Source: a virus
Lineage: Duplodnaviria; Caudoviricetes
Virus record (IMG/VR): IMGVR_UViG_3300037584_001947
Coordinates: 1-30,018 of that record
Strand: one strand, 5' to 3'
Length of the DNA stretch: 30,018 bases
The notes under the pieces were generated by a model, which made no database searches, had not been told where the DNA came from, and saw only the letters and a list, made by a program, of their open reading frames with translations. Numbering within the stretch: position 1 is the first letter of the stretch; every line of letters starts with the position of its first letter. The position numbers were made by a program, and so were the translations under genes. This document shows, piece by piece, positions 6,335 to 30,018 of the stretch.

Positions 6335-6336
6335 AT

Positions 6337-8685
6337 ATGGCTTACAGAAATACAAATAATTTTCCAAGTCAGGTAGTACCTGATGTAGAAAAAATAAGCT
6401 ACGATTACGGTTTAAAAGTTGCTCAAGCTATCGAAAGCGAATGGTTTGATAGAAATGAAGATGGTAACATTAGAGGCAACGGTAGATTTTATAGTAATAA
6501 AAATAATTTTCACAATTTAAGACTATACGCTAGAGGCGAACAGTCTGTACAGAAATACAAAAACGAATTATCTATAAATGGTGATTTAAGTTTTTTAAAT
6601 TTAGACTGGAAACCTGTACCTGTCATACCTAAGTTTGTAGATATTGTAGTTAACGGCATGGCTGAAAGAAACTATGATATAAAAGTATTTTCACAAGATC
6701 CATACGGCGTAGCTAAAAGGACTGAGTATATGGAAAGCGTGCTTAGAGATATGAAGATGAAGCAGTTCGATACTATGGCTAAGCAACAGCTTAACATGGA
6801 CTTAGCTGAAAACGATCCTGAAACTTTACCAGAGTCAGAGCAAGAGTTAGAGCTTCACATGCAACTTAGCTATAAACAAGCTACAGAGCTAGCTGAAGAA
6901 CAAGCTATCAATGTATTGCTACACGGCAATCAATACGATTTAACTAGAAAAAGACTATATTACGATTTAACAGTTTTAGGTATGGCGGCTGTTAAGACTA
7001 CTTTTACTAAAGCAGAAGGTATAAAAATAGATTATGTTGATCCAGATAGAATAGTACACTCGTATAGTGAGTCGCCATACTTTGACGATGTATACTATGT
7101 AGGTGAGGTTAAAACCGTAGCAGTTAACGAGCTAGTAAAAGAGTTTCCTCATTTAAGTCAAGATGATCTTGAAGAAATACAACAGTACAATAATAGTAGA
7201 ACTTACGAATACAACAAAGGTAGAAGAGATCAAGATATAAATCAAGTTGAAGTATTATACTTTAACTGGAAAACTTATATGAACGAAGTATATAAGTTAA
7301 AAGAAACTAAAACAGGTGGAGAAAAAGCTATAGAAAAAGATGACACTTTTAATCCACCAACAAACATGGAAGGTGGCTTTGCTAAAATATCTAGACAAAT
7401 AGAAGTTATATATGAAGGCGCTATGATAATAGGGTCTGATAAACTTTTAAAGTGGGAGATGGCTGAGAATATGATTAGGCCAAAAAGCGATATGACTAAA
7501 GTTAAAATGAATTATAGTCTTGTTGCTCCACGTATGTATCAAGGTAGAATAGAAAGTTTAGTTGGCCGTATAACAGGCTTTGCTGACATGATACAGCTTA
7601 CACATTTAAAGCTACAGCAAGTAATGGCACGTATGGTGCCAGATGGTGTTTATCTAGACGCTGATGGTTTAGCTGAAATAGATTTAGGTAACGGTACAAA
7701 CTATAACCCACAAGAAGCTTTAAATATGTTCTTCCAAACAGGTAGTGTTATAGGTAGATCATATAATGTTGATGGTGATCCAAATCCAGGTAGAATACCT
7801 ATACAAGAAATATCTAATGGTAAAGGCTCTGGAGGTAAGATGCAAACTCTTATAGCAAACTACAATTACTACATGCAGATGATACGCGATGTGACCGGCT
7901 TAAATGAAGCTAGAGATGGTAGCACGCCTGATAGAAACGCTTTAGTAGGAGTTCAAAAGCTAGCAGCTGCAAATAGTAACACGGCTACAAGACATATATT
8001 ACAAGCTGGCCTATATTTAACAGCTGATGTAGCAGAACAAGTGTCACTACGTATATCAGACATTATTGAATACTCGCCAACTCGAGATGCTTTCTTGCAG
8101 CAAATAGGAGTACATAATGTAGCTACGTTAGAAGAAATGGCTGATTTACATTTGTATGACTTTGGTATATTTATAGAGCTTGCTCCAGACGAAGAAGAGC
8201 GTCAGCTATTAGAAAACAATATACAAATGGCTTTGTCTCAAAAGATAATAAAACTATCAGACGCTATTGATATTAGAAATACTAAAAACGTAAAGCTTGC
8301 CAATGAACTATTAAAAATAAAAGAAAAGAAAAAAGTTCAAGAAGATCAAGCTATGCAGCAGCAAAATATACAAGCGCAGCAGCAAGCTCAACAACAAACA
8401 GCTCAAGCTCAAGCCCAAGCTGAAGCACAGAAGCAACAACAAGTAACTCAAGCTCAAATACAACTTGAGCAGGCAAAAGCAGAGTTCAAAGCTAAAAACC
8501 TACAACAAGAAGCTGACATTAAAAAACAATTAATGGAAGCAGAGTTTCAGTACAATGTAAAGTTAAGAGACATGGAGGCTAAACAGAAAAGTAAGTTAGA
8601 AGGTGAAAAGCAAGAAACAAGTAAAAAATTCGAGTCAGCAGGTAATGATGAACTTAGTACTGGCTTGAATATGGATCAGTTTTAA
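6337..8685 (+). CDS. portal protein
   Basis: 782 aa, between TerL and scaffold/MCP. Helical composition with a Gln/Ala-rich C-terminal coiled coil (P22-like barrel). Confidence 0.85.
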   Translation: MAYRNTNNFPSQVVPDVEKISYDYGLKVAQAIESEWFDRNEDGNIRGNGRFYSNKNNFHNLRLYARGEQSVQKYKNELSINGDLSFLNLDWKPVPVIPKFVDIVVNGMAERNYDIKVFSQDPYGVAKRTEYMESVLRDMKMKQFDTMAKQQLNMDLAENDPETLPESEQELELHMQLSYKQATELAEEQAINVLLHGNQYDLTRKRLYYDLTVLGMAAVKTTFTKAEGIKIDYVDPDRIVHSYSESPYFDDVYYVGEVKTVAVNELVKEFPHLSQDDLEEIQQYNNSRTYEYNKGRRDQDINQVEVLYFNWKTYMNEVYKLKETKTGGEKAIEKDDTFNPPTNMEGGFAKISRQIEVIYEGAMIIGSDKLLKWEMAENMIRPKSDMTKVKMNYSLVAPRMYQGRIESLVGRITGFADMIQLTHLKLQQVMARMVPDGVYLDADGLAEIDLGNGTNYNPQEALNMFFQTGSVIGRSYNVDGDPNPGRIPIQEISNGKGSGGKMQTLIANYNYYMQMIRDVTGLNEARDGSTPDRNALVGVQKLAAANSNTATRHILQAGLYLTADVAEQVSLRISDIIEYSPTRDAFLQQIGVHNVATLEEMADLHLYDFGIFIELAPDEEERQLLENNIQMALSQKIIKLSDAIDIRNTKNVKLANELLKIKEKKKVQEDQAMQQQNIQAQQQAQQQTAQAQAQAEAQKQQQVTQAQIQLEQAKAEFKAKNLQQEADIKKQLMEAEFQYNVKLRDMEAKQKSKLEGEKQETSKKFESAGNDELSTGLNMDQF

Positions 8686-8703
8686 ATTATTATATTTTAT
8701 ATT

Positions 8704-9822
8704 ATGGAAGAAAAAGAAATAAAGGACGAAAACATCGTGAAGGTTGATTTAAAAAAGAAACCAGACGAAACAGTTCACAAAGTAGATTTAACTAAAAAAG
8801 AAGAAGAAGATGCCGTTCAGGAGCAAAGCACAGATGAGGTACCTGTTCGCGACGAATCCGAAACTAGCGAAGAAGTACGCGAAGAAGACGAGCAGCCAGC
8901 AATTGAAGAAATTACCGAACAAGCTGAAGAAGAAAAAGAAGAAGAAGAGGTAGTTGAAGAAGTTGTAGCTGAAGAAAAACCAAGCGTAGAACTTCCTGAG
9001 AACATAGAAAAATTAGTTGAATTTATAAACGATACAGGTGGTACTGTTGAAGATTATGTTATGCTAAACAAAGACTTTAGCAATATGGATAACTTAACAG
9101 CTCTTGAAGAGTACTACAAAATTACTAAGCCACATCTAAACGCTGAAGAAAGATCTTTCTTAATGGAAGAAACGTTTAGCTATGATGAAGATGTTGATGA
9201 TAGTAAAGAAGTTAAAAGAAAGAAAATAGCCCTCAAAGAGCAAGTTGCCGAGGCTAAAGCCTACTTAGACAGGCAAAAGTCTAAATATTATGAAGAGATC
9301 AAAGCTGGATCGAAGCTTACAAAAGAGCAACAGAAAGCTATTGACTTCTTCAACAGATATAACAAAGAGTCTGAAGGTGCTCAAAAAAGAAACGAGCATA
9401 TACAGAACGTGTTTAACAAGAAAACATCTAGTCTTTTTTCTGAAAAGTTCAAAGGTTTTGAATATAACGTAGGAGAAAAAAGATTTAGGTTTAATGTTAA
9501 AGATGTTGATAGTGTTAAAGAAACTCAAAGTGATATTGGTAATTTTATCAAAAAGTTTTTGAATAAAGAAGGATCAATAGAAGACGCTGCGGGTTATCAT
9601 AAAGGTTTGTATACCGCTATGAACGCAGATGCTATAGCTCAACACTTTTACGAACAAGGTAAAGCCGATGCTTTAAAAACTTCTGTTGAAAAGTCCAAGA
9701 ATATAAACATGGACCCAAGACAAACTAATAAAGAGGTTAAAGTTGGAGGCACTACATACAAGGTATTAAGTGGAGAGTCTACTTCAGATTTCAAAGTTAA
9801 GATCAAACGAGGTAGAAAATAA
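8704..9822 (+). CDS. capsid scaffolding protein
   Basis: Very acidic, disordered N-terminus, helical core and basic C-terminal tip (KVKIKRGRK). Lies between portal and MCP. Confidence 0.75.
   Translation: MEEKEIKDENIVKVDLKKKPDETVHKVDLTKKEEEDAVQEQSTDEVPVRDESETSEEVREEDEQPAIEEITEQAEEEKEEEEVVEEVVAEEKPSVELPENIEKLVEFINDTGGTVEDYVMLNKDFSNMDNLTALEEYYKITKPHLNAEERSFLMEETFSYDEDVDDSKEVKRKKIALKEQVAEAKAYLDRQKSKYYEEIKAGSKLTKEQQKAIDFFNRYNKESEGAQKRNEHIQNVFNKKTSSLFSEKFKGFEYNVGEKRFRFNVKDVDSVKETQSDIGNFIKKFLNKEGSIEDAAGYHKGLYTAMNADAIAQHFYEQGKADALKTSVEKSKNINMDPRQTNKEVKVGGTTYKVLSGESTSDFKVKIKRGRK
8810..8953 (+). CDS. nested 47-aa basic protein (MPFxSKAQ-type) in the +1 frame of the scaffold gene
   Basis: MPFRSKAQMRYLFATNPKLAKKYAKKTSSQQLKKLPNKLKKKKKKKR*. 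A-rich leader with A at -3 and locally raised GC. The N-terminus matches a small-phage-protein pattern I recall (MPFKSKAQRRYL.A..P..AK). Confidence 0.65.
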   Translation: MPFRSKAQMRYLFATNPKLAKKYAKKTSSQQLKKLPNKLKKKKKKKR

Positions 9823-9851
9823 ATTATTAATCCATTTAAAACTAATTAAAA

Positions 9852-11351
9852 ATGGCAATTTCAAATCCAGGCGCTGGTCACTCCGGCGTCGCAGGTAATT
9901 TGAACAGTGTAGCAGCTCCAAAAAAAGCTCTATTATCTTCAAATTACATTGACTTTACATCTGCTGGCACAAAAGGTTGGGCTCAGCAGTATTTACCAGA
10001 CTTAATTGAGGCTGAAGCAGAAGTGTTCGGTAACAGAACTATTTCAGGTTTCTTGTCTCAAGTAGGTGCTGAAGAGTCTATGACTTCTGACCAAGTTATT
10101 TGGACAGAGCAAGGTAGACTTCACTTATCTTATACAGGTGTTATCAACAATACTACAGGTGTTTTCTCTTGTCAAAAAGATATTGACGGTAATACTTTAA
10201 CTACTGAGCATGGTGTTCGTATTAACGACATGGTTGTTGTAGCTACATCAGAAGGTGTTATCAAGTGTTTGTGTACGGCTGTATCGAACGCTGATATTAC
10301 ACTATTACCTTACGAGCAAGCAAACATCGACGATGCTACTGCTTTCGGTACAGGTACTTCTAATGCTGCTACTATCTTAGTTGTTGGTTCTGAATTTGGT
10401 AAAGGTAAGCAAGGACAAGGCGCTACTACTGCAACTGAAAACAATGGTTTCGGATCTGTAGAACCACAGCACCAGTCTTTTACTAACAAGCCTATCATTA
10501 TTAAAGATTACTACGAGATCAACGGATCTGATGTATCTCAAATCGGTTGGGTAGAAATTTCTGGTGAAGACGGACAGAACGGTTATTTATGGTATTTAAA
10601 AGCTGAAGGCGATACTCGCTCTCGTTTTTCTGACTACTTAGAGATGACTATGATAGAAGCTGTTAAAGGTATTCCTGGAAACTCAACTGCAGAAGGTACT
10701 ATCCGTGCTGCTGGTGATACTTTCGGTACTGAAGGTTTATTCGCTGCTATTGAAGACAGAGGTAACATTACTACTGGTGTAACTGGTGTTAATGCTGCTA
10801 CTGACTTAGCAGAGTTTGACGCTATATTAGCTGAGTTTGACAAGCAAGGTGCTATCGAAGAAAACATGTTATTTGTTAATCGTGCTACAAGTTTAGCTAT
10901 TGACGATATGTTAGCTTCAATGAATTCTTACGGAGCTGGTGGTACATCTTACGGTGTATTCAACAACGACGAAGACATGGCATTGAACTTAGGCTTCTCT
11001 GGTTTCCGTAGAGGATCTTATGACTTCTATAAGTCTGACTTCCGTTACTTAAACGACAAAGCTACTCGTGGATCTATCAATGATAGAGCTGCAGGCTTTG
11101 GTGTTAGAGGAGTTATTATTCCTGCTGGTGTATCAACTGTATACGATCAAACATTAGGTAGAAACTTAAAGCGTCCGTTCTTACACGTACGTTATAGAGC
11201 TTCTCAAATGGACGATAGAAAAATGAAAACTTGGATCACTGGATCTGTTGGTGGAAACATCACTTCTGATCTTGATGCAATGCAAGTAAATTATCTATCT
11301 GAAAGATGTTTAATTGTTCAAGGTGCTAACAACTTCATGTTAATGAAGTAA
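9852..11351 (+). CDS. major capsid protein
   Basis: 499 aa after the scaffold. Strongly biased codon usage (GCT, GGT, TTC, AAC, CGT), followed by a strong terminator. Ends in an HK97-type beta strand 'YLSERCLIVQGANNF'. Confidence 0.88.
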   Translation: MAISNPGAGHSGVAGNLNSVAAPKKALLSSNYIDFTSAGTKGWAQQYLPDLIEAEAEVFGNRTISGFLSQVGAEESMTSDQVIWTEQGRLHLSYTGVINNTTGVFSCQKDIDGNTLTTEHGVRINDMVVVATSEGVIKCLCTAVSNADITLLPYEQANIDDATAFGTGTSNAATILVVGSEFGKGKQGQGATTATENNGFGSVEPQHQSFTNKPIIIKDYYEINGSDVSQIGWVEISGEDGQNGYLWYLKAEGDTRSRFSDYLEMTMIEAVKGIPGNSTAEGTIRAAGDTFGTEGLFAAIEDRGNITTGVTGVNAATDLAEFDAILAEFDKQGAIEENMLFVNRATSLAIDDMLASMNSYGAGGTSYGVFNNDEDMALNLGFSGFRRGSYDFYKSDFRYLNDKATRGSINDRAAGFGVRGVIIPAGVSTVYDQTLGRNLKRPFLHVRYRASQMDDRKMKTWITGSVGGNITSDLDAMQVNYLSERCLIVQGANNFMLMK

Positions 11352-11361
11352 GCATATTATT

Positions 11362-11391
11362 AGGTCGGGGCTTCGGCCCCGATCTTTTTTT
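11362..11391 (+). terminator. rho-independent terminator after the MCP gene
   Basis: AGGTCGGGGC-TTCG-GCCCCGATCT stem (10 bp, one G-U) with a cUUCGg tetraloop, followed by a T-run. Confidence 0.92.
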
Positions 11392-11412
11392 AATTTTTTA
11401 TTATATTATATT

Positions 11413-12255
11413 ATGGCAAAGAAAAAAGAAACAAAAAAGGTTGAAGTAGCGCCTGAAGTAAAAGCTACTAACGATATGGTTGAGGTTGTTATTGAAAATC
11501 CAAAGCCAAAAAAAGTTGAACCTAAAAAACCTTCGTGGGAAATAAAAGATAGAGTTTACTATTTAAAACAAAATAGATCTTCTTTATCTTATTCAATGAA
11601 GTCTTCTGATATTTATTATTTTGACGAAGAAAAAGGTTATGAAAGAGAGTTAAAGTATTGTGAAAACCAAAGAACTGTGTTTGTAGATGAAATGCAAGGT
11701 GATCAAAGACTAGCTCATATTATGTTTAGAAACGGGGCTTTATATGTTCCAAGAGAAAAAGTAACTTTACAAAAGTTATTATCTTTATATCACCCAATGC
11801 GTGATAAGCTTTTTTACGAGCACAAACCTCAAGAGATAGCAGCTACAGAATTAGATTATTTAGAAATAGAAGCTGATGCTTTAGTGCTAGCTAGAACTTT
11901 AGATATTGACAAGATGGAAGCTATCATGCGTGTAGAGTTAGGCTCTAAAGTAGCAGAGATGAGTTCTAAGGAATTAAAACGAGATTGTCTATTGTTTGCA
12001 AAGAAAAATCCACTTTTATTCCTAGAGTTAGTCCAAGACGAAAACGTAGAGCTTAGAAACTTTGGTATTAAAGCTGTTGAAGCTAGAATATTAAAGCTGT
12101 CTGTTGATCAACGATACTTTATGTGGGGATCAAACGATAGAAAAATAATGACAGTTCCTTTTGATGAGCATCCGTATTCTGCTTTAGCCGCTTGGTTTAA
12201 AACAGATGAAGGTATGGAGATATACTCTAATATAGAAAAGCAACTAAATATGTAA
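11413..12255 (+). CDS. hypothetical protein downstream of MCP
   Basis: 280-aa ORF with a Lys/Glu/Pro-rich N-terminal tail and a globular domain. No motif recognised. Confidence 0.75.
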   Translation: MAKKKETKKVEVAPEVKATNDMVEVVIENPKPKKVEPKKPSWEIKDRVYYLKQNRSSLSYSMKSSDIYYFDEEKGYERELKYCENQRTVFVDEMQGDQRLAHIMFRNGALYVPREKVTLQKLLSLYHPMRDKLFYEHKPQEIAATELDYLEIEADALVLARTLDIDKMEAIMRVELGSKVAEMSSKELKRDCLLFAKKNPLLFLELVQDENVELRNFGIKAVEARILKLSVDQRYFMWGSNDRKIMTVPFDEHPYSALAAWFKTDEGMEIYSNIEKQLNM

Positions 12256-12260
12256 TTACT

Positions 12261-12304
12261 TTATAGAAGAGTAACCACTCTTCGGGGTGGTTACTTAACT
12301 ATAA
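12261..12304 (+). terminator. cUUCGg hairpin without a U-tract (weak terminator or mRNA stability/processing element)
   Basis: AGTAACCACTC-TTCG-GGGTGGTTACT (12270-12295), extended by TTATAG/CTATAA. Intergenic. Confidence 0.6.
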
Positions 12305-12315
12305 AAGATAATTAT

Positions 12316-13080
12316 ATGGTAAGTGTAGATACAGTATATCAACGTGTACTAGCATTAGCAAATAAAGAACAAAGAGGTTATATAACTCCGCAAGAGTTTA
12401 ACCTTTTAGCAAATCAATCGCAGATGGAAATATTTGAAGAGTATTTTCATCACTTAAATCAATACCTTAGAAATCCAGGTAATGACTCTAGCTATGCAGA
12501 CTCTGCAGATTATATTCAAGATAAAATTTCAAGGTTTATAGTTGAAGCAGAAGAGTTACAGTATACAGAAGAAAAAACAAACGCATATGTATTGCCATCT
12601 AGTAATCGTATGTATAGATTAACTAGGGTAAGTGCTGGCACAGATATTCTTAGTCCAACAGCTCAACAAATTACTTTTAAAGATTTAAAAAATCAAGCTA
12701 GAGCTGTGTATGCCGCTCAAGCTCACAACAACTCTCCAGTTTACGTACGCATGCATAATGTGCAAGCGAGTGGCCCAGCGTTTGAAGAAGAAACTGCAGG
12801 CTTAATAAAAATATATACGGAAGGCTCAACTGAATTTACAGATAATATAAACATTGGCTATATAAGAATACCTAATAAAGTTATTTGGGATTACGTTGTT
12901 GTAAATGAAAAAGCGTTATACAACGCTACTAATGCTTCAGACTTTGATTTACACCCATCAGAAGAAACAAACTTAGTATACAGAATACTTATGCTAAGTG
13001 GTATAACTATTAACAAACCTGGTCTTGCAAGCTTAGCTAAAGCTGAAGTTGTAGAACAAGGTAATAACGAAAAAGCATAA
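12316..13080 (+). CDS. head-tail adaptor / tail ring protein
   Basis: N-terminal helices 'VDTVYQRVL..ANKEQRGYITPQEFNLLANQSQ', central beta domain ('YVLPS', 'IGYIRIP') and a C-terminal helix, the layout of gp4/gp11-like adaptors. Position after MCP agrees. Confidence 0.6.
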   Translation: MVSVDTVYQRVLALANKEQRGYITPQEFNLLANQSQMEIFEEYFHHLNQYLRNPGNDSSYADSADYIQDKISRFIVEAEELQYTEEKTNAYVLPSSNRMYRLTRVSAGTDILSPTAQQITFKDLKNQARAVYAAQAHNNSPVYVRMHNVQASGPAFEEETAGLIKIYTEGSTEFTDNINIGYIRIPNKVIWDYVVVNEKALYNATNASDFDLHPSEETNLVYRILMLSGITINKPGLASLAKAEVVEQGNNEKA

Positions 13081-14009
13081 TGGGAGAGTACAGCAATCAA
13101 GGCATAAGCAATTACTATAACCAAGAGTCACAGCACGGGTCTTACCAATATCAAACGTTAGACGCTTTAGTTAGCACGTTTTTAATGGTATACGTTGGTG
13201 AAAACAAAATAATATCAAAAGCAAATAGACAAGACGTTTTCTTTTTTGGTCGCAGAGCTTTACAAGAAATGAACTACGATGTATTAAGATCTAAGAAAAC
13301 ATTAGAGTTTGAGTTAGATAACCGTATGTACGTGCCTATGCCTCATGACTATGTTAACCACACCGATGTTTTTTACACAGACAGCTCTGGTATAAAGCAC
13401 CCATTGTTTCCAGCTAGAGATACGCAAAATCCTTTTAGACCTAAAACAAAAGATTTAAACGTTAACGCGCAAGATCTTGATGAGTGGTGGGAAACTATGA
13501 AGTACTACAATATTTTTCAAGAAACTGAATACAATGGTTTAGAAGGAGAAGACTCTAAAACTTTAGAAGCTTTTCAAGCAACTCCTAGTCATGAAGATCA
13601 AGTAGCAGACTTTAATTATAATGACGGACACTCTGAATTTGCATTAGGTCAAAGATATGGTTTAGATCCAGAGCATGCTCAAATAAACGGAAGCTACTTT
13701 TTTGATTACGCTAACGGACATATTTATTTTAGTTCAGGCTTAGTTGGATCTACAATAGTATTAGATTACATAACTGATGGTCTAGCCGACGATGGCGATG
13801 CCTTGATACCTAAGCTAGCTGAAGAAGCTTTTTATAAATGCGTGGCTTACAGTATAGTTTCAACAGGAGCAAATTATAGCCCTGCAACTATACAACAATT
13901 AAAAAAAGAAAGATTTGCAGAGCTTAGAAAAGCTAAGATTAGATTATCAAATTACAAAACACAAGAGCTTACTCAAGTAATGAGAGGTAAGTCTAAATGG
14001 ATAAAATAA
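13080..14009 (+). CDS. second tail ring / adaptor-like structural protein
   Basis: Same layout ('RRALQEMNYD', 'VPMPHDYVN', 'IVLDYITDG', 'IPKLAEEAFYKCVAY'). TAATG-coupled to the previous gene. Confidence 0.55.
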   Translation: MGEYSNQGISNYYNQESQHGSYQYQTLDALVSTFLMVYVGENKIISKANRQDVFFFGRRALQEMNYDVLRSKKTLEFELDNRMYVPMPHDYVNHTDVFYTDSSGIKHPLFPARDTQNPFRPKTKDLNVNAQDLDEWWETMKYYNIFQETEYNGLEGEDSKTLEAFQATPSHEDQVADFNYNDGHSEFALGQRYGLDPEHAQINGSYFFDYANGHIYFSSGLVGSTIVLDYITDGLADDGDALIPKLAEEAFYKCVAYSIVSTGANYSPATIQQLKKERFAELRKAKIRLSNYKTQELTQVMRGKSKWIK

Positions 14010-14012
14010 GAT

Positions 14013-17000
14013 ATGCCAGAATTTAATAGAAATTTTGCGCAAGGTAAGATGAATAAAGATCTTGACGAGCGCCTTATTCCAAATGGTCAGTACAGAGACG
14101 CTATGAACGTACAAGTTTCTACTTCAGATGGTAGTAACGTTGGTTCATTAGAAAACATACTAGGCAACGGTCAGCTTTCAACAAACTTAATACCAGAAGG
14201 CGGTTATTGCGTTGGTTCTATAGTTGATAACGAGGTTAACTGCATATATTATTTAGTCGCAGGTAACGAATTTATTCACTCAAGCGGTAATAGAATTGCT
14301 AAAAATTATATCGTAAAGTATAGCATTGACGACAATAATCTTACTTTTGTATTCGTAGATATTTACAAAGTCACTACGCAGGTAACTGGTTTTGTTGCTG
14401 AAGAGGAAATTCTTTTTGGTGAGATTCCTTTTATACAAGTTTCTAGTAGCTACGGTCTAAGAAAAGGTATGGTGTTTGACAACGACAACATCATTACGCG
14501 TGCTTTTGACGATAACAAACTTATTACATCTAATCAAGATGTGCCTGTAGGAACATATACTTTTGAAAAAGAATCTGTTTTAGGTTTTAATAGCGAAACA
14601 AATATAACGGCTATAAATATTGTTGAAGATTTATTAATGTACACAGACAATATTAACGAGCCTAAAACAATAAATATAAAAAGATCTATATTAGGAACAG
14701 GATCAGGAGATGATGTTTTAAATTCAAGCGGCGCAAATAACTCTTCAGATTTTCACACTAGACTTGTCAGTAGAAGAACAGATGGCAGCTTCAATGACGA
14801 AGGATTTGAAGTAGTAACAAACTTTAATATTTTAGAAGCTGGCGTTCCAGTATATTCTGAGCTAGAAAATAATACAACTATAAGAAAAGGTCCTTTAGCT
14901 CCTCCAACTTTAAGAATGTCTTCTTCTACTGTAGAAAGAGAGCTTAGAGTAGACAGTCCTTTTAATCCAGTAGAATCACCTTTCTTTATTATTTCCGGTG
15001 GACAAGCTACTCAAGTACCTTCTGGATCTGGATTTACTTTACAAACAGACGAGCCTGTTAGCTATTTTGTTGGAGACTTTATATTAATAACACAAGACTT
15101 AACTCAACCACCTACGTCTTTTACAGATCACGATGTTAGAGTTAGAGTAGATGCTGTTAATAGCAATACAAACTTTGACGTTACTATACTAGCTATAGCT
15201 GATGACTTAGATACATCAACTGGTTTTCTTACTATATTAGAACAGCCAGATCCTTTGTTTGAATTTAAGTTTCCAAGGTTTTCTTATAGATATAAGTATG
15301 TAGACGGTCAATATTCTGCGTTTGCTCCTTTTTCTGAAGTAGCTTTTTTACCTGGGCCATACGAATATTATCCTAAAGAAGGATATAACTTAGGTATGGC
15401 TAATAGAGTTAGAAGTTTAAGAGTAGAGAACTACGCTCCATTTCCTGATCACAGGCCTAAAGATATAGTAGAAATAGACGTGCTATACAAAGAAGAAGGA
15501 TCTACCACAGTCTATACTGTTAAAACTATAAAACCTTCAGACGGATCACCACTTTGGCCACTCAGCACAGCGCTTGGTGGATATAGTGTAAGCGCAGGAA
15601 GTGCTATCAACGATGGATTAGTATTTAGAGGTAGTCTAAATATAGAGTCAGAATTAATACATGCTGTAGTTCCAGCCAATCAATTATTAAGACCTTGGGA
15701 TAATGTTCCTAGAAAAGCTTTAGCTCAAGAAGTTTCAGCTAATAGATTAATATATGCTAACTATGTTCAAAACTACGATCTTGTAGATTCAAGTAATAAA
15801 CTATTAACGCCTGAGCTTAAAGTAGGTTTAGTTTCAAAATCTTACGGCGATCCTGGAATATCACCTAACATAGGTGTTCCTTTTAAATCTATAAAAACAC
15901 AAAGAACATATCAGCTAGGAGTTGTATACAAAGACGAGTTTGGTAGAGAAACACCTGTACTAGCAGACAAAGAAAAAGGATCTTTTACTGTAGGCAAAGA
16001 GTTTTGTGATAATTTAAACTCGCTTAAAGTTAGTGTTTTAAATAGCGCACCAACTTGGGCTAAATCTTTTAAATTTTTTATAAAAGAAACCTCTAATGAA
16101 TATTACAACTTAGCAATGGATCGTTGGTACAATGCTGAAGATGGTAATATATGGTTGTCTTTTCCTTCGTCTGATAGAAATAAAGTTGATGAAGAAACAT
16201 TTTTAGAATTAAAGAAAGCGCACGATAGTGATGTAGTTGTAGAACAGCCTGCTAGATATAAGATACTAGCTATTAGCAATGAAGCTCCTGAATTTATAAA
16301 GCTTCAAAGAAAAAGTTTAGGTACACTACTAAACTCTTCGCATGATGGAGTAGATGATAATCAAATTGGTAGCGCTGCAATAGGTTATCCTATATCCGGT
16401 GAAAATTTAATACATATAAGAAGAAACGCTTTTGAAGAAAACTTTGATCCAGACGTGGTTTTACCTATAGCTTCTGATTGCTCTGTAAAAATAAGAACAA
16501 TAACAGGAGAGTTTAGTAAGTACTACGACATAGTAAGTATAAAGAAAGATAATATCTTTGGTCAAGACGACGATGGCTATAAAATAACTATATCAGACAC
16601 TTTTGACCCTGACGTAAACAATGTTACTGGTGGATCTTTTACGCCAGCTACAAATAGACTAGGATTACAAATAGAGATAGTTCAAAACGAAATTGAAAAT
16701 AAACCTGAGTTTGAAGGTAAGTTCTTTGCTAAGATATACAAAGATCAAATCATAGAAGATTTTATTATGATATTAGACGACGAAAGAAATTTAGTCGTTG
16801 TCGATGCTTATGAAACTAGTTACCTTCATACTTACAATGGTGATGATTCTAATCCATACAGTGGTGTTAACTTAGGCCCACACACAAATAACTCTGCGGC
16901 TGGTGTTGCTATAAATGTTAGAAATCAGTGGAGAGATTCTCAAGCAACAGAAGGCCATCAAAACCCGTATAAAACTAGCTACACTTGGGGTGATAATGCT

Positions 17001-19565
17001 AATTACGGAGGACCTCAGATAGGTGGAGCTTTTAACGTAAGACACACTAGCTCAGGAGATCTTCTTGGAAACGACGACTGGGGTATTGGAAAAGGTGATT
17101 TTGCTTATGATTTTTGGCATAGATATTTTACAAGTAGTGGTAGAGCAAACATATTTATAGATGATGCTTGGGCTTTAACGTGGAGACAAACTCCACATAC
17201 ATTAACCAACGTTACTGCTGAAGATCCTAACGACTCTAGCCCTTATCATAACGCGCCAAATCATAACGGTGATTTTAATGCTGGTATGCCTAACTTAACA
17301 GAGCAAGCAAGATGGGACGATGGTAATGGGTTTGCTAAAAATGGATCTAGAGGTATAAGAGGTAATTTAATGGACATATCTGTTACAGGTGGTTTTCATG
17401 GGCGGTTTAATGGAGACAAATGGGAAGGAGATGAGTTTGATTTAGCTAATCCAGCGGCTATGCAATTTTTAAATCCATACATATTACATGACGGAGATAA
17501 TAAAGATGAATATAATTTTTTAAGATCTTTAACTTTGCCTGGAATAAAATGGAGATTCAAAGAAGATCCAGACAAAACTATATATGAAGTTACAAAAGCA
17601 TATAAACACTATGGTATTATAAACTATCAGCTAGCAAACTCTGACCTTGGAATTGGAGCAGCAAATCCTATTGAAGTTGCTTGGTATCTTAATAACATAG
17701 CTGCTGCAAACGCAGATGTTCTTTTTGGTGGAGATGGTTTTAATATAAGGCCTGGTATTGCAATTGGCTCACCTCTATCGCGATACCAGATAGAATCTAA
17801 TAAAAGAAATAAATTTACAATTGCGGTTGACAAACCTTTTGCTTGGGATCCTAGATCTACAATAGCTCACGATGGTACAGAGACAGTAACTATACAAATA
17901 TTAGGTAGATACGGAAACGAAGATATTGGTTTTTCTTCTGATAATCCAGCGGTATGGGAAACTAAACCTAAAGAAGAAATAGAGTTAGATATATACTATG
18001 AAGTTAGTAGAGCTTATCCTATAGAAATAGAATCAAATAATGAAGAAACTGTTTTGATTCCAGGCTATGCAGACTTAGTATCTGTTGCTGGTAATTTAGA
18101 GCCTAATTTTAATAGAGTTAATAGTTTAAGGTATTTTTCAGGTTCAGAAAACGCTAGTATTTCTCTCACTAATCCTATTACTGCAAACGTAGGTGCTGAG
18201 CTATTGATTAACGATGGATATGGTGGGCAGATAACTTTAGTTGTAGCTCAATTAGTTAACAATAGTACGCGTGTAAATGTTAATAGAAGGTTTCACTCTG
18301 CTTTTACAGAGATAACCTTACCTTGGCATAACTGCTATGTGTTTGGAAACGGTGTAGAGTCTGATAGAATAAGAGATGATTTTAATCAACCAACTATACA
18401 AAACGGTGTAAAAGCTTCTACAACAATAGCAGAACAATACAAAGAAGAAAGAAGATCGCAAAGCTTTATATTTTCTGGTATATTCAACAGCTTGTCAGGT
18501 GTTAATAGATTAAATCAATTTATACAAGCAGAGCCTATAACTAAAGATCTTGACCCTGATAACGGTAGTATACAAAAGTTATTTACTAGAGATACTGACA
18601 TAATAACGTTTTGTGAAGACAAAGTGTTGAAAGTTTTGTCTGATAAAGATGCTTTATTTGAGTCAGGTGGTAATGCTCAGCTAACCGCTGCAAATAAAGT
18701 TTTAGGTCAAGCTATTGCTTTTGGAGGTGACTATGGAATATCTAAAAATCCCGAAAGTTTTGCCGCAGATAAATATCGATGTTACTTTACAGATACTCAA
18801 AGAGGCGCTGTAATAAGATTATCTAAAGACGGTATGACACCAATATCAGATTATGGTATGAAAGATTATTTTACAGACACGTTTAATAATATAAGAGATA
18901 TTAGATTAATTGGAACTTTTGATCAAAGAAAAGATAATTATAACTTAACAATATCAAGCAAGGGTCGAAGAGCTAGTTTTTTAAAAGCAATAGAGCCAAC
19001 GACTATAACTTACAATGAGCAAGTCAAAGGCTGGGTAAGTTTTAAAAGCTTTCACCCTGAGTCTGGAGTTGGTGTAAACAATGATTACTACACTTTTAAA
19101 AACGGATCTCTATGGAAGCATCACACTAATGCTAATAGAAACGATTTTTATAGCGAAGGATTTGTACCGTCGCATGTAGAAATATTATTTAACGATGCTC
19201 CTAGCTCTGTTAAAAACTTTCAAACTATAAAATACGAAGGCACTCAAGCTAAAGTAGATAGAGACACGAGTGATGATCAATACTATAACTTGTCAACTAA
19301 ACGAGGTTGGTACGTTGACTTTGCGTTTACAGATCTTCAAGACGGCAAAGTTCCTGAGTTCATAGATAAAGAAGGTAAATGGTTTAACTTTATAAAAGGA
19401 GCGTGCACTGACTTTAATAACTTAGACGAAAAAGAGTTTACAGTACAAGGCATTGGGCAAGCAGAGAGCATACAGCACAGTAGTCCGGGCGAGCTAGCTC
19501 CAGTTTCTAAAAGAGTTATATTTAGAGACTCAAACTTTAGCGTAACAGGAGAAAATTGGGATTAA
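14013..19565 (+). CDS. tail stabilisation / nozzle (muzzle-like) protein
   Basis: N-terminal 'F..GKMNKDLDERLIPNGQYRDAMN' and C-terminal propeller-like 'YGISKNPESFA...YFTDTQRGAVIRLS.DG' are typical of P22 gp10 / crAss-like stabilisation proteins. 1850 aa, beta-rich. Confidence 0.7.
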   Translation: MPEFNRNFAQGKMNKDLDERLIPNGQYRDAMNVQVSTSDGSNVGSLENILGNGQLSTNLIPEGGYCVGSIVDNEVNCIYYLVAGNEFIHSSGNRIAKNYIVKYSIDDNNLTFVFVDIYKVTTQVTGFVAEEEILFGEIPFIQVSSSYGLRKGMVFDNDNIITRAFDDNKLITSNQDVPVGTYTFEKESVLGFNSETNITAINIVEDLLMYTDNINEPKTINIKRSILGTGSGDDVLNSSGANNSSDFHTRLVSRRTDGSFNDEGFEVVTNFNILEAGVPVYSELENNTTIRKGPLAPPTLRMSSSTVERELRVDSPFNPVESPFFIISGGQATQVPSGSGFTLQTDEPVSYFVGDFILITQDLTQPPTSFTDHDVRVRVDAVNSNTNFDVTILAIADDLDTSTGFLTILEQPDPLFEFKFPRFSYRYKYVDGQYSAFAPFSEVAFLPGPYEYYPKEGYNLGMANRVRSLRVENYAPFPDHRPKDIVEIDVLYKEEGSTTVYTVKTIKPSDGSPLWPLSTALGGYSVSAGSAINDGLVFRGSLNIESELIHAVVPANQLLRPWDNVPRKALAQEVSANRLIYANYVQNYDLVDSSNKLLTPELKVGLVSKSYGDPGISPNIGVPFKSIKTQRTYQLGVVYKDEFGRETPVLADKEKGSFTVGKEFCDNLNSLKVSVLNSAPTWAKSFKFFIKETSNEYYNLAMDRWYNAEDGNIWLSFPSSDRNKVDEETFLELKKAHDSDVVVEQPARYKILAISNEAPEFIKLQRKSLGTLLNSSHDGVDDNQIGSAAIGYPISGENLIHIRRNAFEENFDPDVVLPIASDCSVKIRTITGEFSKYYDIVSIKKDNIFGQDDDGYKITISDTFDPDVNNVTGGSFTPATNRLGLQIEIVQNEIENKPEFEGKFFAKIYKDQIIEDFIMILDDERNLVVVDAYETSYLHTYNGDDSNPYSGVNLGPHTNNSAAGVAINVRNQWRDSQATEGHQNPYKTSYTWGDNANYGGPQIGGAFNVRHTSSGDLLGNDDWGIGKGDFAYDFWHRYFTSSGRANIFIDDAWALTWRQTPHTLTNVTAEDPNDSSPYHNAPNHNGDFNAGMPNLTEQARWDDGNGFAKNGSRGIRGNLMDISVTGGFHGRFNGDKWEGDEFDLANPAAMQFLNPYILHDGDNKDEYNFLRSLTLPGIKWRFKEDPDKTIYEVTKAYKHYGIINYQLANSDLGIGAANPIEVAWYLNNIAAANADVLFGGDGFNIRPGIAIGSPLSRYQIESNKRNKFTIAVDKPFAWDPRSTIAHDGTETVTIQILGRYGNEDIGFSSDNPAVWETKPKEEIELDIYYEVSRAYPIEIESNNEETVLIPGYADLVSVAGNLEPNFNRVNSLRYFSGSENASISLTNPITANVGAELLINDGYGGQITLVVAQLVNNSTRVNVNRRFHSAFTEITLPWHNCYVFGNGVESDRIRDDFNQPTIQNGVKASTTIAEQYKEERRSQSFIFSGIFNSLSGVNRLNQFIQAEPITKDLDPDNGSIQKLFTRDTDIITFCEDKVLKVLSDKDALFESGGNAQLTAANKVLGQAIAFGGDYGISKNPESFAADKYRCYFTDTQRGAVIRLSKDGMTPISDYGMKDYFTDTFNNIRDIRLIGTFDQRKDNYNLTISSKGRRASFLKAIEPTTITYNEQVKGWVSFKSFHPESGVGVNNDYYTFKNGSLWKHHTNANRNDFYSEGFVPSHVEILFNDAPSSVKNFQTIKYEGTQAKVDRDTSDDQYYNLSTKRGWYVDFAFTDLQDGKVPEFIDKEGKWFNFIKGACTDFNNLDEKEFTVQGIGQAESIQHSSPGELAPVSKRVIFRDSNFSVTGENWD

Positions 19566-23845: not shown

Positions 23846-26800
23846 ATGCAAGAATTATATCAAGCACTTTACGATCAAGGTAAATACACAAAAACATTTG
23901 AAGAGTTTAAAGCACAATTTGAATCAGAAGATAATCAACAAGAGCTTTATAGCGCGTTAAATAATTCAGGAGATTACACAAAATCTTATGAAGAGTTTGG
24001 CAGTCAGTTTTTTGGAAAAGTAAAAAAAGAAACGACTCCACAGGGCGATGCGACTGCGGAGTCCGAAGGTACGGCATCAACTTCGGAGCCTACTTTTTTG
24101 GACTCGTTACAACTAAGTCCCGAAGCTTATAGTATTGTAAATAGCTATAGAACACCTGACGAGTTAAAAGCTGATATTGATGCTGGTAAAATAACAAATC
24201 CAGAAATCATAAACTACGTTAAAGGCGCTGGTGGTGAAGGACCAACTGATCAAGAGCTACTAGTAACTTCTGCAGACGAAATGTTAAAATCTCAAGAAGT
24301 AACAGAAGGTGATCAAGCTAATATACTTAAAAAAAGAAAAGAAGTAAACGAGTATTTGAAAAAAGTAGCTATAGCTTTTGATATGCCAGACGCTACTGCT
24401 CCAGAAATACAAGCTGAGCTAGATAAGTTTATGAGATTTGATACTCAATATACTGAGGGTCGAACAGCGTCTAGGTTTAGTCAAGAAGAAGTTAAGCGTT
24501 ATAACGATAGAAGATTAAAATTGATTGAAGCGGGTGTACTAGAAAATAGAGTTCAAGGTGTTAGATCTATTACTACGAAGCAATACAACTCCGATATTGA
24601 GGACGGTAAAATTCAGGATTTATCCTCACGTCAATTTAAGCAAACAGAAGCTTTACGAGCTTATGTTAAAGCAAAAATGCCTAACGCTCTAGACGGTTTA
24701 ACACCTAAAGAATCAAAAGATAAAAAAGCTCAAATACTAAACAGCGAAGAATTTAAAGAGTTTGAAAAAGAGTTTACTTTAGATGAAGAGCAATTAACTA
24801 AACAAGAAAAGTATATTGTTGAAGACTTTTTAAATCAAAAAGAAGTTAGTTTACTTGAAGACAGAATACAAGCAGAGTTAAAGAAAAACGAAAAAAGCGG
24901 TTTGCTCTACGATGTTGGAGAGCTACTAGCGAAAGCTGATGCAGAGGAATTTTCTTTCCCTATACCTAAGTCTTTGCGTGAGAAGTTATTGTTTAGAGAA
25001 ACAGAAAGAGACGCTAAAGAAAACGTAGCTTTAAAAGAGTTAGAAGGTTTAGACACAAGATTAAAAGAAAAATATTCTACACTAGGTGTTATAGGTAAAG
25101 ACATGAATAACATCTTGACTCAAATGAAAAAGCTTCAAAACTTTTTTGATACAGAAGATCCTAAGTCTTATACATCACAAGATCAAATTGACATGTACAA
25201 AGCTAATGCTAAGACTTACAATAATCTTAGAGCACAAGCTAATATTTATCAATTAAAAGCAGATGAAATCTATGAAACCTTAACACCGCTTGAAGAAAAA
25301 TCAAAAGATTTACAGACATATATAAAAGCTGTAACAAGAGATCCAAATCATATAATAGCATTTGGAGGTAACTTAGCTAACGCTAGTATAGATCTTGCGC
25401 AAGGTATTGCGGGTGTTGCAGATTTAATATATCAAATGCCTAAAGAGTTTTTAGATGAAGTAAATGAAATATCTACTTTAGGGTTTGAGGCTGCCGCAAG
25501 AACTAAAAGACCTCCTAGAAAAACAAAGCTGACAGAGCTTAATAGAAGCATTGACAAATGGCAAAATGACGAGATAACTTCTCAAATTAGAAAGCCAGTT
25601 CAATTTGATCAAATAGATGGTGCTGGATCTGCGATTGAGTGGAGCGCTAATTTATTTGCAGGACAAATACCTCAGCTAGCTTTAATGACTGTAACAGGTG
25701 GTGCTTCGCTGTATGTTATGGGTGCTAGTAGTGCAGGTCAAAAGTTTTACGACATGCAAGAACAGAAGCAGTTGTACTTTGACACTGGCGGTTTGTATGG
25801 TAGAAACCACAACTTTGGCACAATGGCTTTAAACGCTAGCTTCACGGGAACTATGGAAGCTTTATCTGAGAGAGTTACTCTTAGAGCTGTAGATAAAACT
25901 AAAGATATACTAGGTGGCGTGAGTAGAGCCACTAGAAATCAAGGTTATTTTAATTATTTAAAAAAGAATTTATTTACTTTTGACAATATAAAAAATACTG
26001 GGTATGAGCTTTTTGAAGAAGGCTTTAGTGAGTCATTAGCAACAATGAGTAGTAACTTCGCTGACATAGTTAGTGGCGACAAAAGCAAAAATTTATATGA
26101 TGGCGTGCCTGAAGCTTTTGCTAGCGGCGTAGTAATTAGCGCTGGTATACAAAGCCCAAGGCTTTTTGCAGAATTCAAAAGACCTTTCCAACAAGAATCA
26201 ACAACTCAAAAAGTTGACGCTATAGCTAGTAGGCTTAATGACATAAGCAAAGAAATGGTTAAGCTTAATGAAACTTTTCAAGGTCAAGAGCTAGCAGATA
26301 AACGAAGTGAGTTAGAAACAGAATATGCTAACCTAGTAGAAGAGGCTAACGTAGCTATAGAGCAAGACGTTAAGCGTATAGATGTAATGGACAATGCTGA
26401 AAAGGCTGAGTTAATAAACATCGAAAGATCAAAGCAAAAAATAAGACAACAATTAACTAGCATAAACTCTAATGCAGATCTTAATGCAGAACAAAAGAAA
26501 GCTGAAGTAGATAAATTAAGAAATGAGTTTAATGATTTAAACAAAAATAAAAACAAGATACTACAAAAATATCCTGTTAATGTTGTTGACGCTAAGTACA
26601 AGCAAGAGATGGAGATGGCTAAAGCTTACATGGATAAAGTTAATAGTCGAGGCGTAGTTGAAATGCAAGTCAACGAAAAAAGCCAGCAAGAGTTTGATGA
26701 CTTAATATCTAGAGATCAGTTTGATGCTAGCAAAGCTGAAGTTGAAGATTTTACATTAGAGTCTGGCGGTATGGCAATAGCGTTTCAAGAAATAATAAAC

Positions 26801-29800
26801 GACAAAGACGCCACAGCAGAAGAGAAAGCAGAAGCTAAAGCAGCCTTAGAAGTTTTTGAAGACAAGACTATGCAAGGCATAGGTATGCTTAACTTTATAG
26901 ATGGTAACGCTTCTAGCTATGGGGCTATGACACCTAGGTTTGATGGCAATGGTAATTTAGCAGGGTTAAATATAGAGATAAACAAAGATCAAGCATTAAC
27001 TAACAATGAGTTTAATGTTGCTTCACATGAGTTTGTTCATGCTGCTTTTTACAACACACTTAAAGCAGATCCTATAGCTAGAGAAAGATTAGGTAATGTT
27101 ATTGATGATATTATAGACTCTGGCGATGTTGTGTTTGAGCAAGGTCAAAAAGAAGCTTTTGATAAAAAAATAAACCTGTACGAAAACAATAGAAAAGGTG
27201 AAGAAAAAATGACGTTCCTTACAGAGTTTGTTAGAGCTAACAAAGCTACAATAAAAGACTCTGGACTTGATAAAATTAAAGGTACGTTTAGAAGATTTGC
27301 TCAAAACTATTTAGGCAAAGATATAAGACTTGATAGTAAAAAAGATATATTAAACTTTATAAAAGACTACGACGTATCTGTTAAAAACAACAAGCCAAAC
27401 AAAGCCATTATACGTATGATGGAAAAAGGTGCTAATGGCAAAATATTTAAAGACGCTAGAACACCTGAGCAAATTAAAGGCGAGACAGAGTTTTCAAGAG
27501 CTTTAGAGTCTACTGTACAGTCAGATCCTGATATTAAAGAAACATTTGATAAGTTTACACAAAACGCAGACGGTACTCCTAAACATGCTTCGCAACAAGC
27601 TTGGGAAGATAGTCCGGATTATTGGAACGCTTACTTTACTATAGTAGAAGGTAGAGCTTTAGACGGTTTAATTCAACACAAGATGACAGAAAAAGGTTTA
27701 CCACCTGCTGCGCTACGTGAGTTTACTAGAAAAGTTAAAGAAAAAATTGGTGAAAGATTTTTGCCTACAGTAGATAAAAAAACAGGTGAAGTAAAACCTG
27801 ACTCTGGATATAGAGTTTCAAACGATAGTTTATTTGGTTGGTTAACAGGCGTAGCTGGTGGAGCAGGTAGATCTGTCATATACAGAGCTAAAGGTGATGT
27901 AATGGCAGAGTATAAAGCTGATCCTACATCTACAGCCCCATCGTTAGACGCGCCTATTGGAGACGCTGGCACAGTAGCAGATATAATACCTGACGACAGC
28001 TCTGTTGTAGAAGCTATAGAAAATGAAGACTTATCTATAGGTAGACGTGATGCTATTAGAGAAATAGCTGTAAACGAACTTATAGCTAAAGATGAGTTAA
28101 ACTTTTCTCAAGACGCAAAAGACGCTATTAGAGATATTGTAGCTGACGCTAATATACCGTTAGAAGGTTTGACATATAAAGGTTTTAAAAAGCTTATGGT
28201 TGAAGCTATGAAGGTAGATAAAAACGGTAAGCTAAAACCTCCTACAAAAACTTCTGATGTAGTACCTGTTGGTGCTTTGTACAATGTATTAGAGGTAACA
28301 GCTTCAGAGTTTGGTGTTGATCCACTTAGAATATTAGCTAATCAAGACTTAACAGATGTTCAGCGTCAAACAGCTCAAGAAAAAATACTAGAATTATCTA
28401 CAAATCAAGATGGTAGTTTTAACGACGTATTATTTAAGCTGTTACCAGAAGGTGAAACAAGAAGTGGCGAAGCTACAGGTATAGCTAACACTAAGCTTGG
28501 AGATTTATATACTAAAGGTGAAAGAGTTAGAGTATCTGAAGGTGCTGCTAAAAAGTTAGGTCAAAAATTTGAGCAAAAGAAAAAGACTAGAGTTACGCAA
28601 AAACAATTATTTGATTTGTTTGGTATTAATCAAGACGGAACGTTTAAGCCTGGTAAAGAAGCTGACGGTGCTATACGAGCTTTAGTAGTTCAAATGGCTC
28701 AAGTAACAGCTAATCAACAGGCTAGAATAAACGCTTTAGAAAACGGTACTGCTACAGAAGCCGCGGCCGCTAAGCTTGCTGACGGTAAATCTGAGCTTGT
28801 GTTTTCAAGAGCTGACGCAGACTTAGCTGTTGTTCAAGATAAATGGGCTGAATACTCTGCAGAAATATCTAAAGCTACAAACAAAGTAATGGTTGAAAGT
28901 TCTACTAATAAGTTTTATGATACATTAGTAGAAGCTAAAAAAAGAATAATAGCTGATAAATCTTTTAACAACATAAAAGATATTATTGAAAAGCCAGAAG
29001 TTAAAGATAAAAAACTAGATCATACAACAAAAGATTATTACAGAGGACAAAACAGATCAGGAGTAGTTATTCCTAAAATGACTGTGTTTAAAGAAGGTGC
29101 TATAGACAAAAAGGGCGAACCAAAACAATATAAATCTGAAAGAGATGTAGACGCTCCGTTTAAAGACGGTGAAACTTACGATCAAGCCGCCAGTAGAATA
29201 TTGAACGCTTTTGTGCATGTAAACCCACGGTTTAGAGATATGTTTTCAAAAACAATGACGGGCGGTGTTGTTAGAGGAGGATTTTTTAAAACAGTTTTTG
29301 AGTTTGATAAAAGAATAAATAAAACTACAGAGTCTCAAGTAACAGAAAAGTTTGACGTTTGGAGAGATACTTATAATGAAAAAAATAAACTGACGCAGAA
29401 AGGCGTAGATAAAATGAACAGTAAAGAGTTTAGAGATAAAGCTCAACAAAAAATGGATTCATATATCTACGACTTCTTTAAATCAGTTGAGGCATATCTT
29501 AAAGTAAATCCTGATCATGGCTGGGTGTTTGAGCAAATGATGAGAGATGGCAGCACAGATCAAAACTCTTTTATTAGAGTTTCTGCTATACCTTCTGGTT
29601 ATCCTATTAATGCTGATGGTACTCCTAATCTTAATGAGAAAGTTGTTGAAGAACATAGCAAGCCTCAAAACAATATAGGCCACAGTATGTTAAACGCTGC
29701 TCAAGACGGTAGAGTTGATGAGCAGTATAAAGTTACAAAAGCCGCTTACATGCAGATGTCACTTCTTGAAATAGACGATAATGCTGTTAATGATTCTGGT

Positions 29801-30018
29801 TTAAAAGAAAGAATGCCTGATGTTTATTATGAAAAAATAGTTCCAAAAATAATTGACGAAAGTTTAGATTATCTTCCTGATGGTTTTGCTTCTGCAATTA
29901 GACTAGCCGCAGCTGGAACTGCTTACGCACCTAAAGACAATGGCGGTAGAGCTGTTGACTTAGGAAAATACTATATGCCTCAAGTAGGTATGACGCTTGG
30001 TCAATACTTTGGAACAGA
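23846..30018 (+). CDS. giant multidomain internal virion (ejection / polyvalent) protein, 3'-truncated, >2057 aa
   Basis: ATG at 23846 after an A/T-rich leader (MQELYQALYDQGKYTK...). Manual translation shows no stop to the window end. Contains Gly/Ala hydrophobic helices, coiled coils, an HEFVH zincin motif (27026-27040) and sigma70-like motifs (about 27620-28340). Confidence 0.88.
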   Translation, partial: MQELYQALYDQGKYTKTFEEFKAQFESEDNQQELYSALNNSGDYTKSYEEFGSQFFGKVKKETTPQGDATAESEGTASTSEPTFLDSLQLSPEAYSIVNSYRTPDELKADIDAGKITNPEIINYVKGAGGEGPTDQELLVTSADEMLKSQEVTEGDQANILKKRKEVNEYLKKVAIAFDMPDATAPEIQAELDKFMRFDTQYTEGRTASRFSQEEVKRYNDRRLKLIEAGVLENRVQGVRSITTKQYNSDIEDGKIQDLSSRQFKQTEALRAYVKAKMPNALDGLTPKESKDKKAQILNSEEFKEFEKEFTLDEEQLTKQEKYIVEDFLNQKEVSLLEDRIQAELKKNEKSGLLYDVGELLAKADAEEFSFPIPKSLREKLLFRETERDAKENVALKELEGLDTRLKEKYSTLGVIGKDMNNILTQMKKLQNFFDTEDPKSYTSQDQIDMYKANAKTYNNLRAQANIYQLKADEIYETLTPLEEKSKDLQTYIKAVTRDPNHIIAFGGNLANASIDLAQGIAGVADLIYQMPKEFLDEVNEISTLGFEAAARTKRPPRKTKLTELNRSIDKWQNDEITSQIRKPVQFDQIDGAGSAIEWSANLFAGQIPQLALMTVTGGASLYVMGASSAGQKFYDMQEQKQLYFDTGGLYGRNHNFGTMALNASFTGTMEALSERVTLRAVDKTKDILGGVSRATRNQGYFNYLKKNLFTFDNIKNTGYELFEEGFSESLATMSSNFADIVSGDKSKNLYDGVPEAFASGVVISAGIQSPRLFAEFKRPFQQESTTQKVDAIASRLNDISKEMVKLNETFQGQELADKRSELETEYANLVEEANVAIEQDVKRIDVMDNAEKAELINIERSKQKIRQQLTSINSNADLNAEQKKAEVDKLRNEFNDLNKNKNKILQKYPVNVVDAKYKQEMEMAKAYMDKVNSRGVVEMQVNEKSQQEFDDLISRDQFDASKAEVEDFTLESGGMAIAFQEIINDKDATAEEKAEAKAALEVFEDKTMQGIGMLNFIDGNASSYGAMTPRFDGNGNLAGLNIEINKDQALTNNEFNVASHEFVHAAFYNTLKADPIARERLGNVIDDIIDSGDVVFEQGQKEAFDKKINLYENNRKGEEKMTFLTEFVRANKATIKDSGLDKIKGTFRRFAQNYLGKDIRLDSKKDILNFIKDYDVSVKNNKPNKAIIRMMEKGANGKIFKDARTPEQIKGETEFSRALESTVQSDPDIKETFDKFTQNADGTPKHASQQAWEDSPDYWNAYFTIVEGRALDGLIQHKMTEKGLPPAALREFTRKVKEKIGERFLPTVDKKTGEVKPDSGYRVSNDSLFGWLTGVAGGAGRSVIYRAKGDVMAEYKADPTSTAPSLDAPIGDAGTVADIIPDDSSVVEAIENEDLSIGRRDAIREIAVNELIAKDELNFSQDAKDAIRDIVADANIPLEGLTYKGFKKLMVEAMKVDKNGKLKPPTKTSDVVPVGALYNVLEVTASEFGVDPLRILANQDLTDVQRQTAQEKILELSTNQDGSFNDVLFKLLPEGETRSGEATGIANTKLGDLYTKGERVRVSEGAAKKLGQKFEQKKKTRVTQKQLFDLFGINQDGTFKPGKEADGAIRALVVQMAQVTANQQARINALENGTATEAAAAKLADGKSELVFSRADADLAVVQDKWAEYSAEISKATNKVMVESSTNKFYDTLVEAKKRIIADKSFNNIKDIIEKPEVKDKKLDHTTKDYYRGQNRSGVVIPKMTVFKEGAIDKKGEPKQYKSERDVDAPFKDGETYDQAASRILNAFVHVNPRFRDMFSKTMTGGVVRGGFFKTVFEFDKRINKTTESQVTEKFDVWRDTYNEKNKLTQKGVDKMNSKEFRDKAQQKMDSYIYDFFKSVEAYLKVNPDHGWVFEQMMRDGSTDQNSFIRVSAIPSGYPINADGTPNLNEKVVEEHSKPQNNIGHSMLNAAQDGRVDEQYKVTKAAYMQMSLLEIDDNAVNDSGLKERMPDVYYEKIVPKIIDESLDYLPDGFASAIRLAAAGTAYAPKDNGGRAVDLGKYYMPQVGMTLGQYFGT
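24022..24078 (+). promoter_or_regulatory. candidate -1 programmed ribosomal frameshift signal (slippery heptamer plus H-type pseudoknot)
   Basis: In-frame A_AAA_AAA (24022-24028), 5-nt spacer, stem GACTCC-A-CAG / CTG-C-GGAGTC (24034-24063), and loop GATGC (24047-24051) complementary to GCATC (24074-24078). Confidence 0.55.

Follow-up and report, generated by a model that had tools for sequence, protein, structure and literature searches.

The DNA analysed here, referred to as the window, is the whole of the linear virus record IMGVR_UViG_3300037584_001947 (Caudoviricetes; 30,018 nucleotides; estimated completeness 51%). Its plus strand carries a virion module consisting of a terminase, a portal, a capsid-type protein, a muzzle and a last, giant open reading frame (ORF) with 2,057 translated residues; the window lacks the early half of the genome. 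Residues 1216-1656 of the giant ORF (27491..28813) make up a module, the first part of which is predicted to fold like region 2 of sigma70-family factors, and related phages carry a repeated promoter-like motif upstream of early genes. An earlier note on this DNA had described the segment as a sigma70-like module, with stretches like regions 2, 3.2 and 4, that might be injected into the host. Feature coordinates are collected in Table 1.

Table 1. Features of the window and the stand-alone sigma gene of relatives
Feature	Position	Strand	Remarks
Terminase	4121-6334	+	PHROGs and Pfam PF25731/PF25729, the basis for context genes 4121..19565
Portal	6337-8685	+	PHROGs/Pfam context
Capsid-type protein	9852-11351	+	PHROGs/Pfam context
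crAss-type muzzle	14013-19565	+	PHROGs/Pfam context
Giant multidomain (polyvalent-type) protein	23846..30018	+	3'-open here; last gene of virion module
Scaffold region, residues 544-908	25475..26569	+	weak similarity to the giant 'structural proteins' that cultured Flavobacteriia phages encode
HExxH, zincin-like metallopeptidase domain	27026..27040	+	155 residues ahead of module
FSRA word, module start	27491..27502	+	
Sigma70 region 2-like domain (predicted), module residues 11-147	27521..27931	+	
NDSLFGWL, region 2.3 register	27821..27844	+	contains W117, aromatic in 76/76 rows
Acidic low-confidence linker	27926..27997	+	region 3.2-like stretch of the earlier note
Compact C-terminal domain, module residues 195-441	28073..28813	+	holds region 4-like words
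Second FSRA word, module end	28802..28813	+	
Stand-alone sigma70 gene, regions 2 and 4	G002 44209-44961 (L060 8209-8961)		in 19/21 near-complete relatives

The sigma region 2-like domain

The module is bracketed by the sole two FS[RK][AS] words in the translated part of the giant ORF, which are candidate linkers or cleavage sites. Structure prediction supports a sigma70 region 2 fold for module residues 11-147. In a search of 48,161 chains, the predicted fold of this segment retrieved sigma region 2 structures; all of ranks 1-26, and 32 of the best 50 rows, were sigma-type entries, either sigma factors or chains of sigma-containing transcription complexes, and the Z scores were modest. By this predicted-structure search the four-helix fold of region 2 is present. 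Alignments with FliA and RpoE are in the region 2.1-2.3 register and place W117 opposite FliA Y70 and the tryptophan of FYTWL in RpoE. In genuine sigma factors the region 2.3 aromatic occupies the DNA-melting position; here it is tryptophan in 47 rows, tyrosine in 24 and phenylalanine in five. Among close relatives the region 2 stretch is the most conserved part of the module, S113-L118 and G120 being invariant in 47/47 rows; subtypes that have diverged strongly still show this register. Given these invariant residues and the retrieved structures, the region 2 likeness pointed out in the earlier note is beyond chance.

Profile methods gave no match to Sigma70_r2 or the sigma70 family at the curated cut-off, hhalign scores were not significant, and an alignment of 47 members had no sigma family among the best 25 of 31 Pfam rows. 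A language-model search with a 54%-identical homologue pointed to clusters in which 50% of the members carry Sigma70_r2, at a score of 0.94; this is a lead only.

Relatives of the module were sampled as 19 proteins, 51 IMG/VR loci and 156 cluster representatives. A query with a second subtype gave 49 loci, sharing one contig with the set of 51. The phages bearing the module are a widespread group of uncultured marine phages.

The linker and the C-terminal domain

All of the words quoted in the earlier note are in frame, namely NDSLFGWL (Table 1), SLDAPIGD... (27941-27997), LEGLTYK (28160-28180) and LEVTASEFGVDPLRI (28289-28333). A complete region 2-3.2-4 architecture, however, was not supported. 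The C-terminal two thirds of the module form a different domain, which is not the same in all relatives, whereas the sigma2-like segment is retained. The supposed region 3.2 falls in an acidic, flexible linker, with a predicted local distance difference test score (pLDDT) below 50 at module residues 146-159 and 161-169. This linker is variable across subtypes and its region 3.2-like stretch is not kept in the second subtype.

The C-terminal part is predicted to fold as a single domain of 247 residues (pLDDT 90.5; predicted template modelling score 0.89). The region 4-like words within it are partly conserved (K230 in 84/91, F274 in 78/91 and G275 in 84/91), but the helix following the supposed turn, at the position of a recognition helix, is only five residues long (278-282). 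Fold searches with this domain assigned it to no family.

The giant protein as candidate virion cargo

Complete relatives of the giant protein have about 2,450-4,060 residues (51 loci, one frameshifted locus aside). The gene is syntenic with phi38:1 gp101, elemoA gp21 and Gundel gp74, and the scaffold region matches the giant proteins of Calle (tblastn E 9e-6), phi38:1 (1e-5), and elemoA and Gundel (both 4e-3) at 22-26% identity. The label 'structural protein' is in each case the depositors' annotation; for phi38:1 it reportedly has proteomic support. In phi14:2, gp65-67, annotated by mass spectrometry, occupy the corresponding place. The traits of polyvalent or cargo proteins are present: the protein is very large and multidomain, has a zincin HExxH and variable enzyme domains, and ends the virion module. 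Among the 51 loci, HExxH lies 147-211 residues upstream of the module in 49, and a HAD-like motif follows the module in many. The position as last virion gene, the synteny and weak similarity to giant 'structural proteins', and the phi14:2 parallel together suggest that the protein is virion cargo, which is probably packaged and injected with the DNA. What survives of the earlier claim is a predicted sigma region 2 fold, embedded in a giant and probably virion-packaged protein and conserved in many marine relatives.

The zincin-like domain is a candidate processing protease. A zincin is also present in phi14:2 gp65, and cleavage is assumed for fused forms (bioRxiv 2020.03.07.982082); autoprocessing by zincin-type peptidases is proposed for injected polyvalent proteins (PMC5512222).

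Several further observations concern the giant gene. In the window (29648-29656 and beyond) and in L002 and L004, the module is followed by a conserved EEH-containing domain and then by a HAD-like DFDxT domain; a Zeta-toxin/AAA-type kinase or a DUF5763-like repeat at the C-terminus is present in addition in some relatives. L002 (from 6359), near-identical in the module (99%), has a stretch unrelated to residues ~160-270 of ORF 23846, which suggests a swapped cassette. In the giant ORF of G018 (L166) the zincin motif is degenerate, without HExxH, and a sigma2-like stretch is still there by eye; L090, L104 and L115 have no HExxH, yet keep the second subtype. Frame breaks in the module of L044 (~10830) and in the terminase of G040 (25828-28033) may be assembly errors.

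A candidate early promoter in related phages

The terminase is 44% identical to that of Elemovirus phages, and Cellulophaga, Tenacibaculum and Maribacter phages also match (87 records). Near-complete relatives measure 61-72 kb and encode GroEL/GroES and a stand-alone sigma70 gene, and thus fit the 'group 2' putative Flavobacteriaceae phages, which have phi38:1-like structural genes, GroEL/GroES and a sigma70 gene according to the available part of Nishimura et al. 2017 (PMC5332604). On that account the host may be a member of the Flavobacteriaceae. In the window, a GroES-like protein (3320-3898; PHROGs E 2e-10) directly precedes the terminase region, and a holin-like gene lies at 1196-1618 (PHROGs E 2e-4). 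Two terminator-like hairpins with CTTCGG-type loops, both kept in relatives, follow the capsid gene (~11363-11391, then a T run) and the next gene (~12270-12296).

A repeated motif, ACAAAnnAAATACGA-N9-GATAATA, was first noticed upstream of small early genes in the relatives G002 and G017, from which the search pattern was drawn; the other 13 of the 15 genomes with sites are independent of that drawing. Its consensus is (T)ACAAAcTAAATACGA-N9-GATAATA, in which the ATACG located at about -23 to -27 hardly varies. The 15 relatives contain 119 sites, compared with 1-6 in five block shuffles. Of these, 107 are on the strand of early and replication genes, with a 9-nt spacer in 106/107, and an ATG follows within 18 nt in 75/106. 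Most complete genomes have 7-12 copies (early regions of G001-G020, for example G002 35086-42321), and the motif also occurs downstream of the stand-alone sigma gene, before replication genes. The window, without its early half, has no site. A scan of 11 of the 64 parts of IMG/VR gave 193 loci, and about 730 stored stretches with the motif are estimated for the collection. The only difference in the motif between subtypes is the base before GATAAT (A 40 and G 24 of 69, against G 34/36), which may reflect descent. From its sequence and placement, the motif is a candidate dedicated early promoter-like element.

The stand-alone sigma (Sigma70_r4 above the Pfam cut-off, region 2 weak) is 50-66% identical across 18 other genomes. 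Most of the motif sites precede its gene on the same strand, so that this sigma cannot easily start its own expression. A different motif, a candidate late promoter, was seen on the late strand of G007, G014, G017 and G018: AGTAAA followed after ~13 nt by a GTG(A/T)ACTATAT-like word, at a distance of 14-48 nt from the start codon. Its hits upstream of genes number 15 in 42,965 positions, compared with 33 in 623,266.

Motif and module were also compared starting from the motif. Among 23 long contigs from the first 80 of the 193 loci of the scan, 22 have this terminase. The giant gene was fetched from 18; the five set aside were three with strong hits in the C-terminal part, one that lacks the terminase and one fragment. 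HExxH is present in all 18 giant ORFs, and sigma2-subtype profiles match behind it in 12 (weakest E 0.02), or 13 after one iteration; the remaining five are similar by eye only. Neither the motif nor a match to the stand-alone sigma was found in phi38:1, elemoA, Manatee Spring phage, Gundel or phi14:2, and in the first four the module is missing from the giant protein. As these phages are more distant, the co-absence is not independent of descent.

Used as a single query without a positive control, phi14:2 gp66 had no match in any of the 11 near-complete relatives searched. A DFDxD-type motif occurs only sporadically and at scattered positions in the 51 giant ORFs, which are thus not classed as crAss-type RNA polymerases.

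Proposed mechanism and alternatives

The absence of gp66 matches in those 11 relatives suggests a need for a specificity factor, which the phage would inject rather than a whole polymerase. We consider it the most likely reading, though at no better than even odds, that such a sigma2-based factor, freed from the injected polyprotein, recruits host RNA polymerase to the early motif. Excision of the module by the zincin at the flanking FSR-type words has a similarly even chance. That the sigma2 domain would dock on the beta-prime clamp helices and melt DNA at GATAAT is somewhat probable. More tentatively, the C-terminal domain might take the place of sigma region 4 in recognising the upstream 15-bp element. 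The stand-alone sigma would serve later genes. In its fullest form, which is possible but doubtful, this amounts to a third route of early transcription in these abundant marine phages, besides injected polymerases (N4, crAss) and host promoters: an injected polyprotein releases, by its own zincin, a hybrid sigma composed of a fast-evolving region 2 domain and a new-fold domain reading the 15-bp element, which redirects host RNA polymerase to the 7-12 early promoters before any phage proteins are made, until the encoded sigma takes over.

Two points weigh against this proposal: the sigma2 segment evolves far more quickly than the nearly unchanged motif, and the tripartite (middle) promoters of phi14:2 are read by a primary sigma (bioRxiv 2020.03.07.982082). 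Either would favour a decoy combined with the host sigma as reader of the motif, or else the stand-alone sigma as its reader. As a decoy or takeover factor, the injected domain would bind the clamp and there displace alternative sigmas or regulators of the host, or compete with them, leaving the motif to the host primary sigma. This is rather unlikely. GATAAT is only one base from the sigma70 -10 consensus TATAAT, but in gene orientation the motif is unlike the Bacteroidota primary consensus TTTG...TAnnTTTG, its near-invariant ATACG lies where a primary sigma makes few specific contacts, and an aromatic is kept at the melting position in every row. Less probable still is that the stand-alone sigma reads the motif whilst the cargo domain does no more than prime a few first transcripts, or plays some other part; this sigma is conserved like the motif and both are missing from the five more distant phages, but something else must start transcription upstream of its gene, and a different candidate motif precedes the late-strand genes. 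About as improbable is that the segment, as a generic four-helix bundle or a relic derived from a sigma, has a part in structure or DNA ejection without contacting RNA polymerase: the modest Z, the non-significant profile scores and the ejection structures formed by cargo proteins of related phages agree with it, but the fold-search ranks and the shared register of divergent subtypes do not, and phi38:1, elemoA, Manatee Spring phage and Gundel manage with giant proteins that lack the segment.

If the favoured proposal of an injected specificity factor is correct, close relatives of crAss-like phages have a new early-transcription strategy, intermediate between the injection of a polymerase and the use of host promoters, which would account for the way in which these phages begin transcription without a polymerase of their own. 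An orthogonal pair of sigma and promoter would then also be at hand, as well as a C-terminal domain of unassigned fold that is worth solving. The module of ~440 residues with natural ends and the sharp 30-bp candidate promoter form a ready test system.

Comparison with known systems

In the literature searched, mainly listings with passages of some papers, no description of an injected sigma2-type domain was found; the domain tables that accompany PMC5512222 may affect this novelty. The polyvalent proteins treated there (Iyer et al. 2017) are likewise large and multidomain, and they combine a zincin-like peptidase with enzyme domains that vary (here a HAD-like motif, and a P-loop kinase in relatives); 'sigma' occurs 0 times in the main text. 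For the 'group 2' phages, the accessible text of PMC5332604 mentions one sigma70-like gene, and neither a second domain in a giant protein nor an early motif. Pervagoviridae, Pachyviridae and Elemovirus have akin, phi38:1-like structural genes, but the cultured relatives tested lack module and motif.

The domain shares its predicted fold and the 2.1-2.4 register with region 2 of the extracytoplasmic function sigmas SigR, SigC, SigW and SigE and the group 3 factors sigma28 and sigma32. It differs from them in lying inside a ~3,000-residue phage protein, in being followed by a 247-residue domain with no recognisable region 4, and in falling below all profile thresholds. A phage sigma reduced largely to region 2, and relying on other parts, is known in T4 gp55; chain F of entry 7d7d, which we take to be this late sigma, ranked sixth in the fold search with residues 11-147. 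However, gp55 is a stand-alone gene expressed late, whereas the present domain sits within a candidate virion protein and is associated with early sites.

N4 gp50 and gp66 of the crAss-like phi14:2, the latter with the zincin-bearing gp65, offer a parallel in a giant protein that ends the virion module, a zincin and a candidate solution to early transcription. Unlike with gp66, the payload here would confer specificity on the polymerase of the host. Moreover, the early genes of phi14:2 have no common motif, as far as the available text of bioRxiv 2020.03.07.982082 indicates, whilst those of the phages described here share one.
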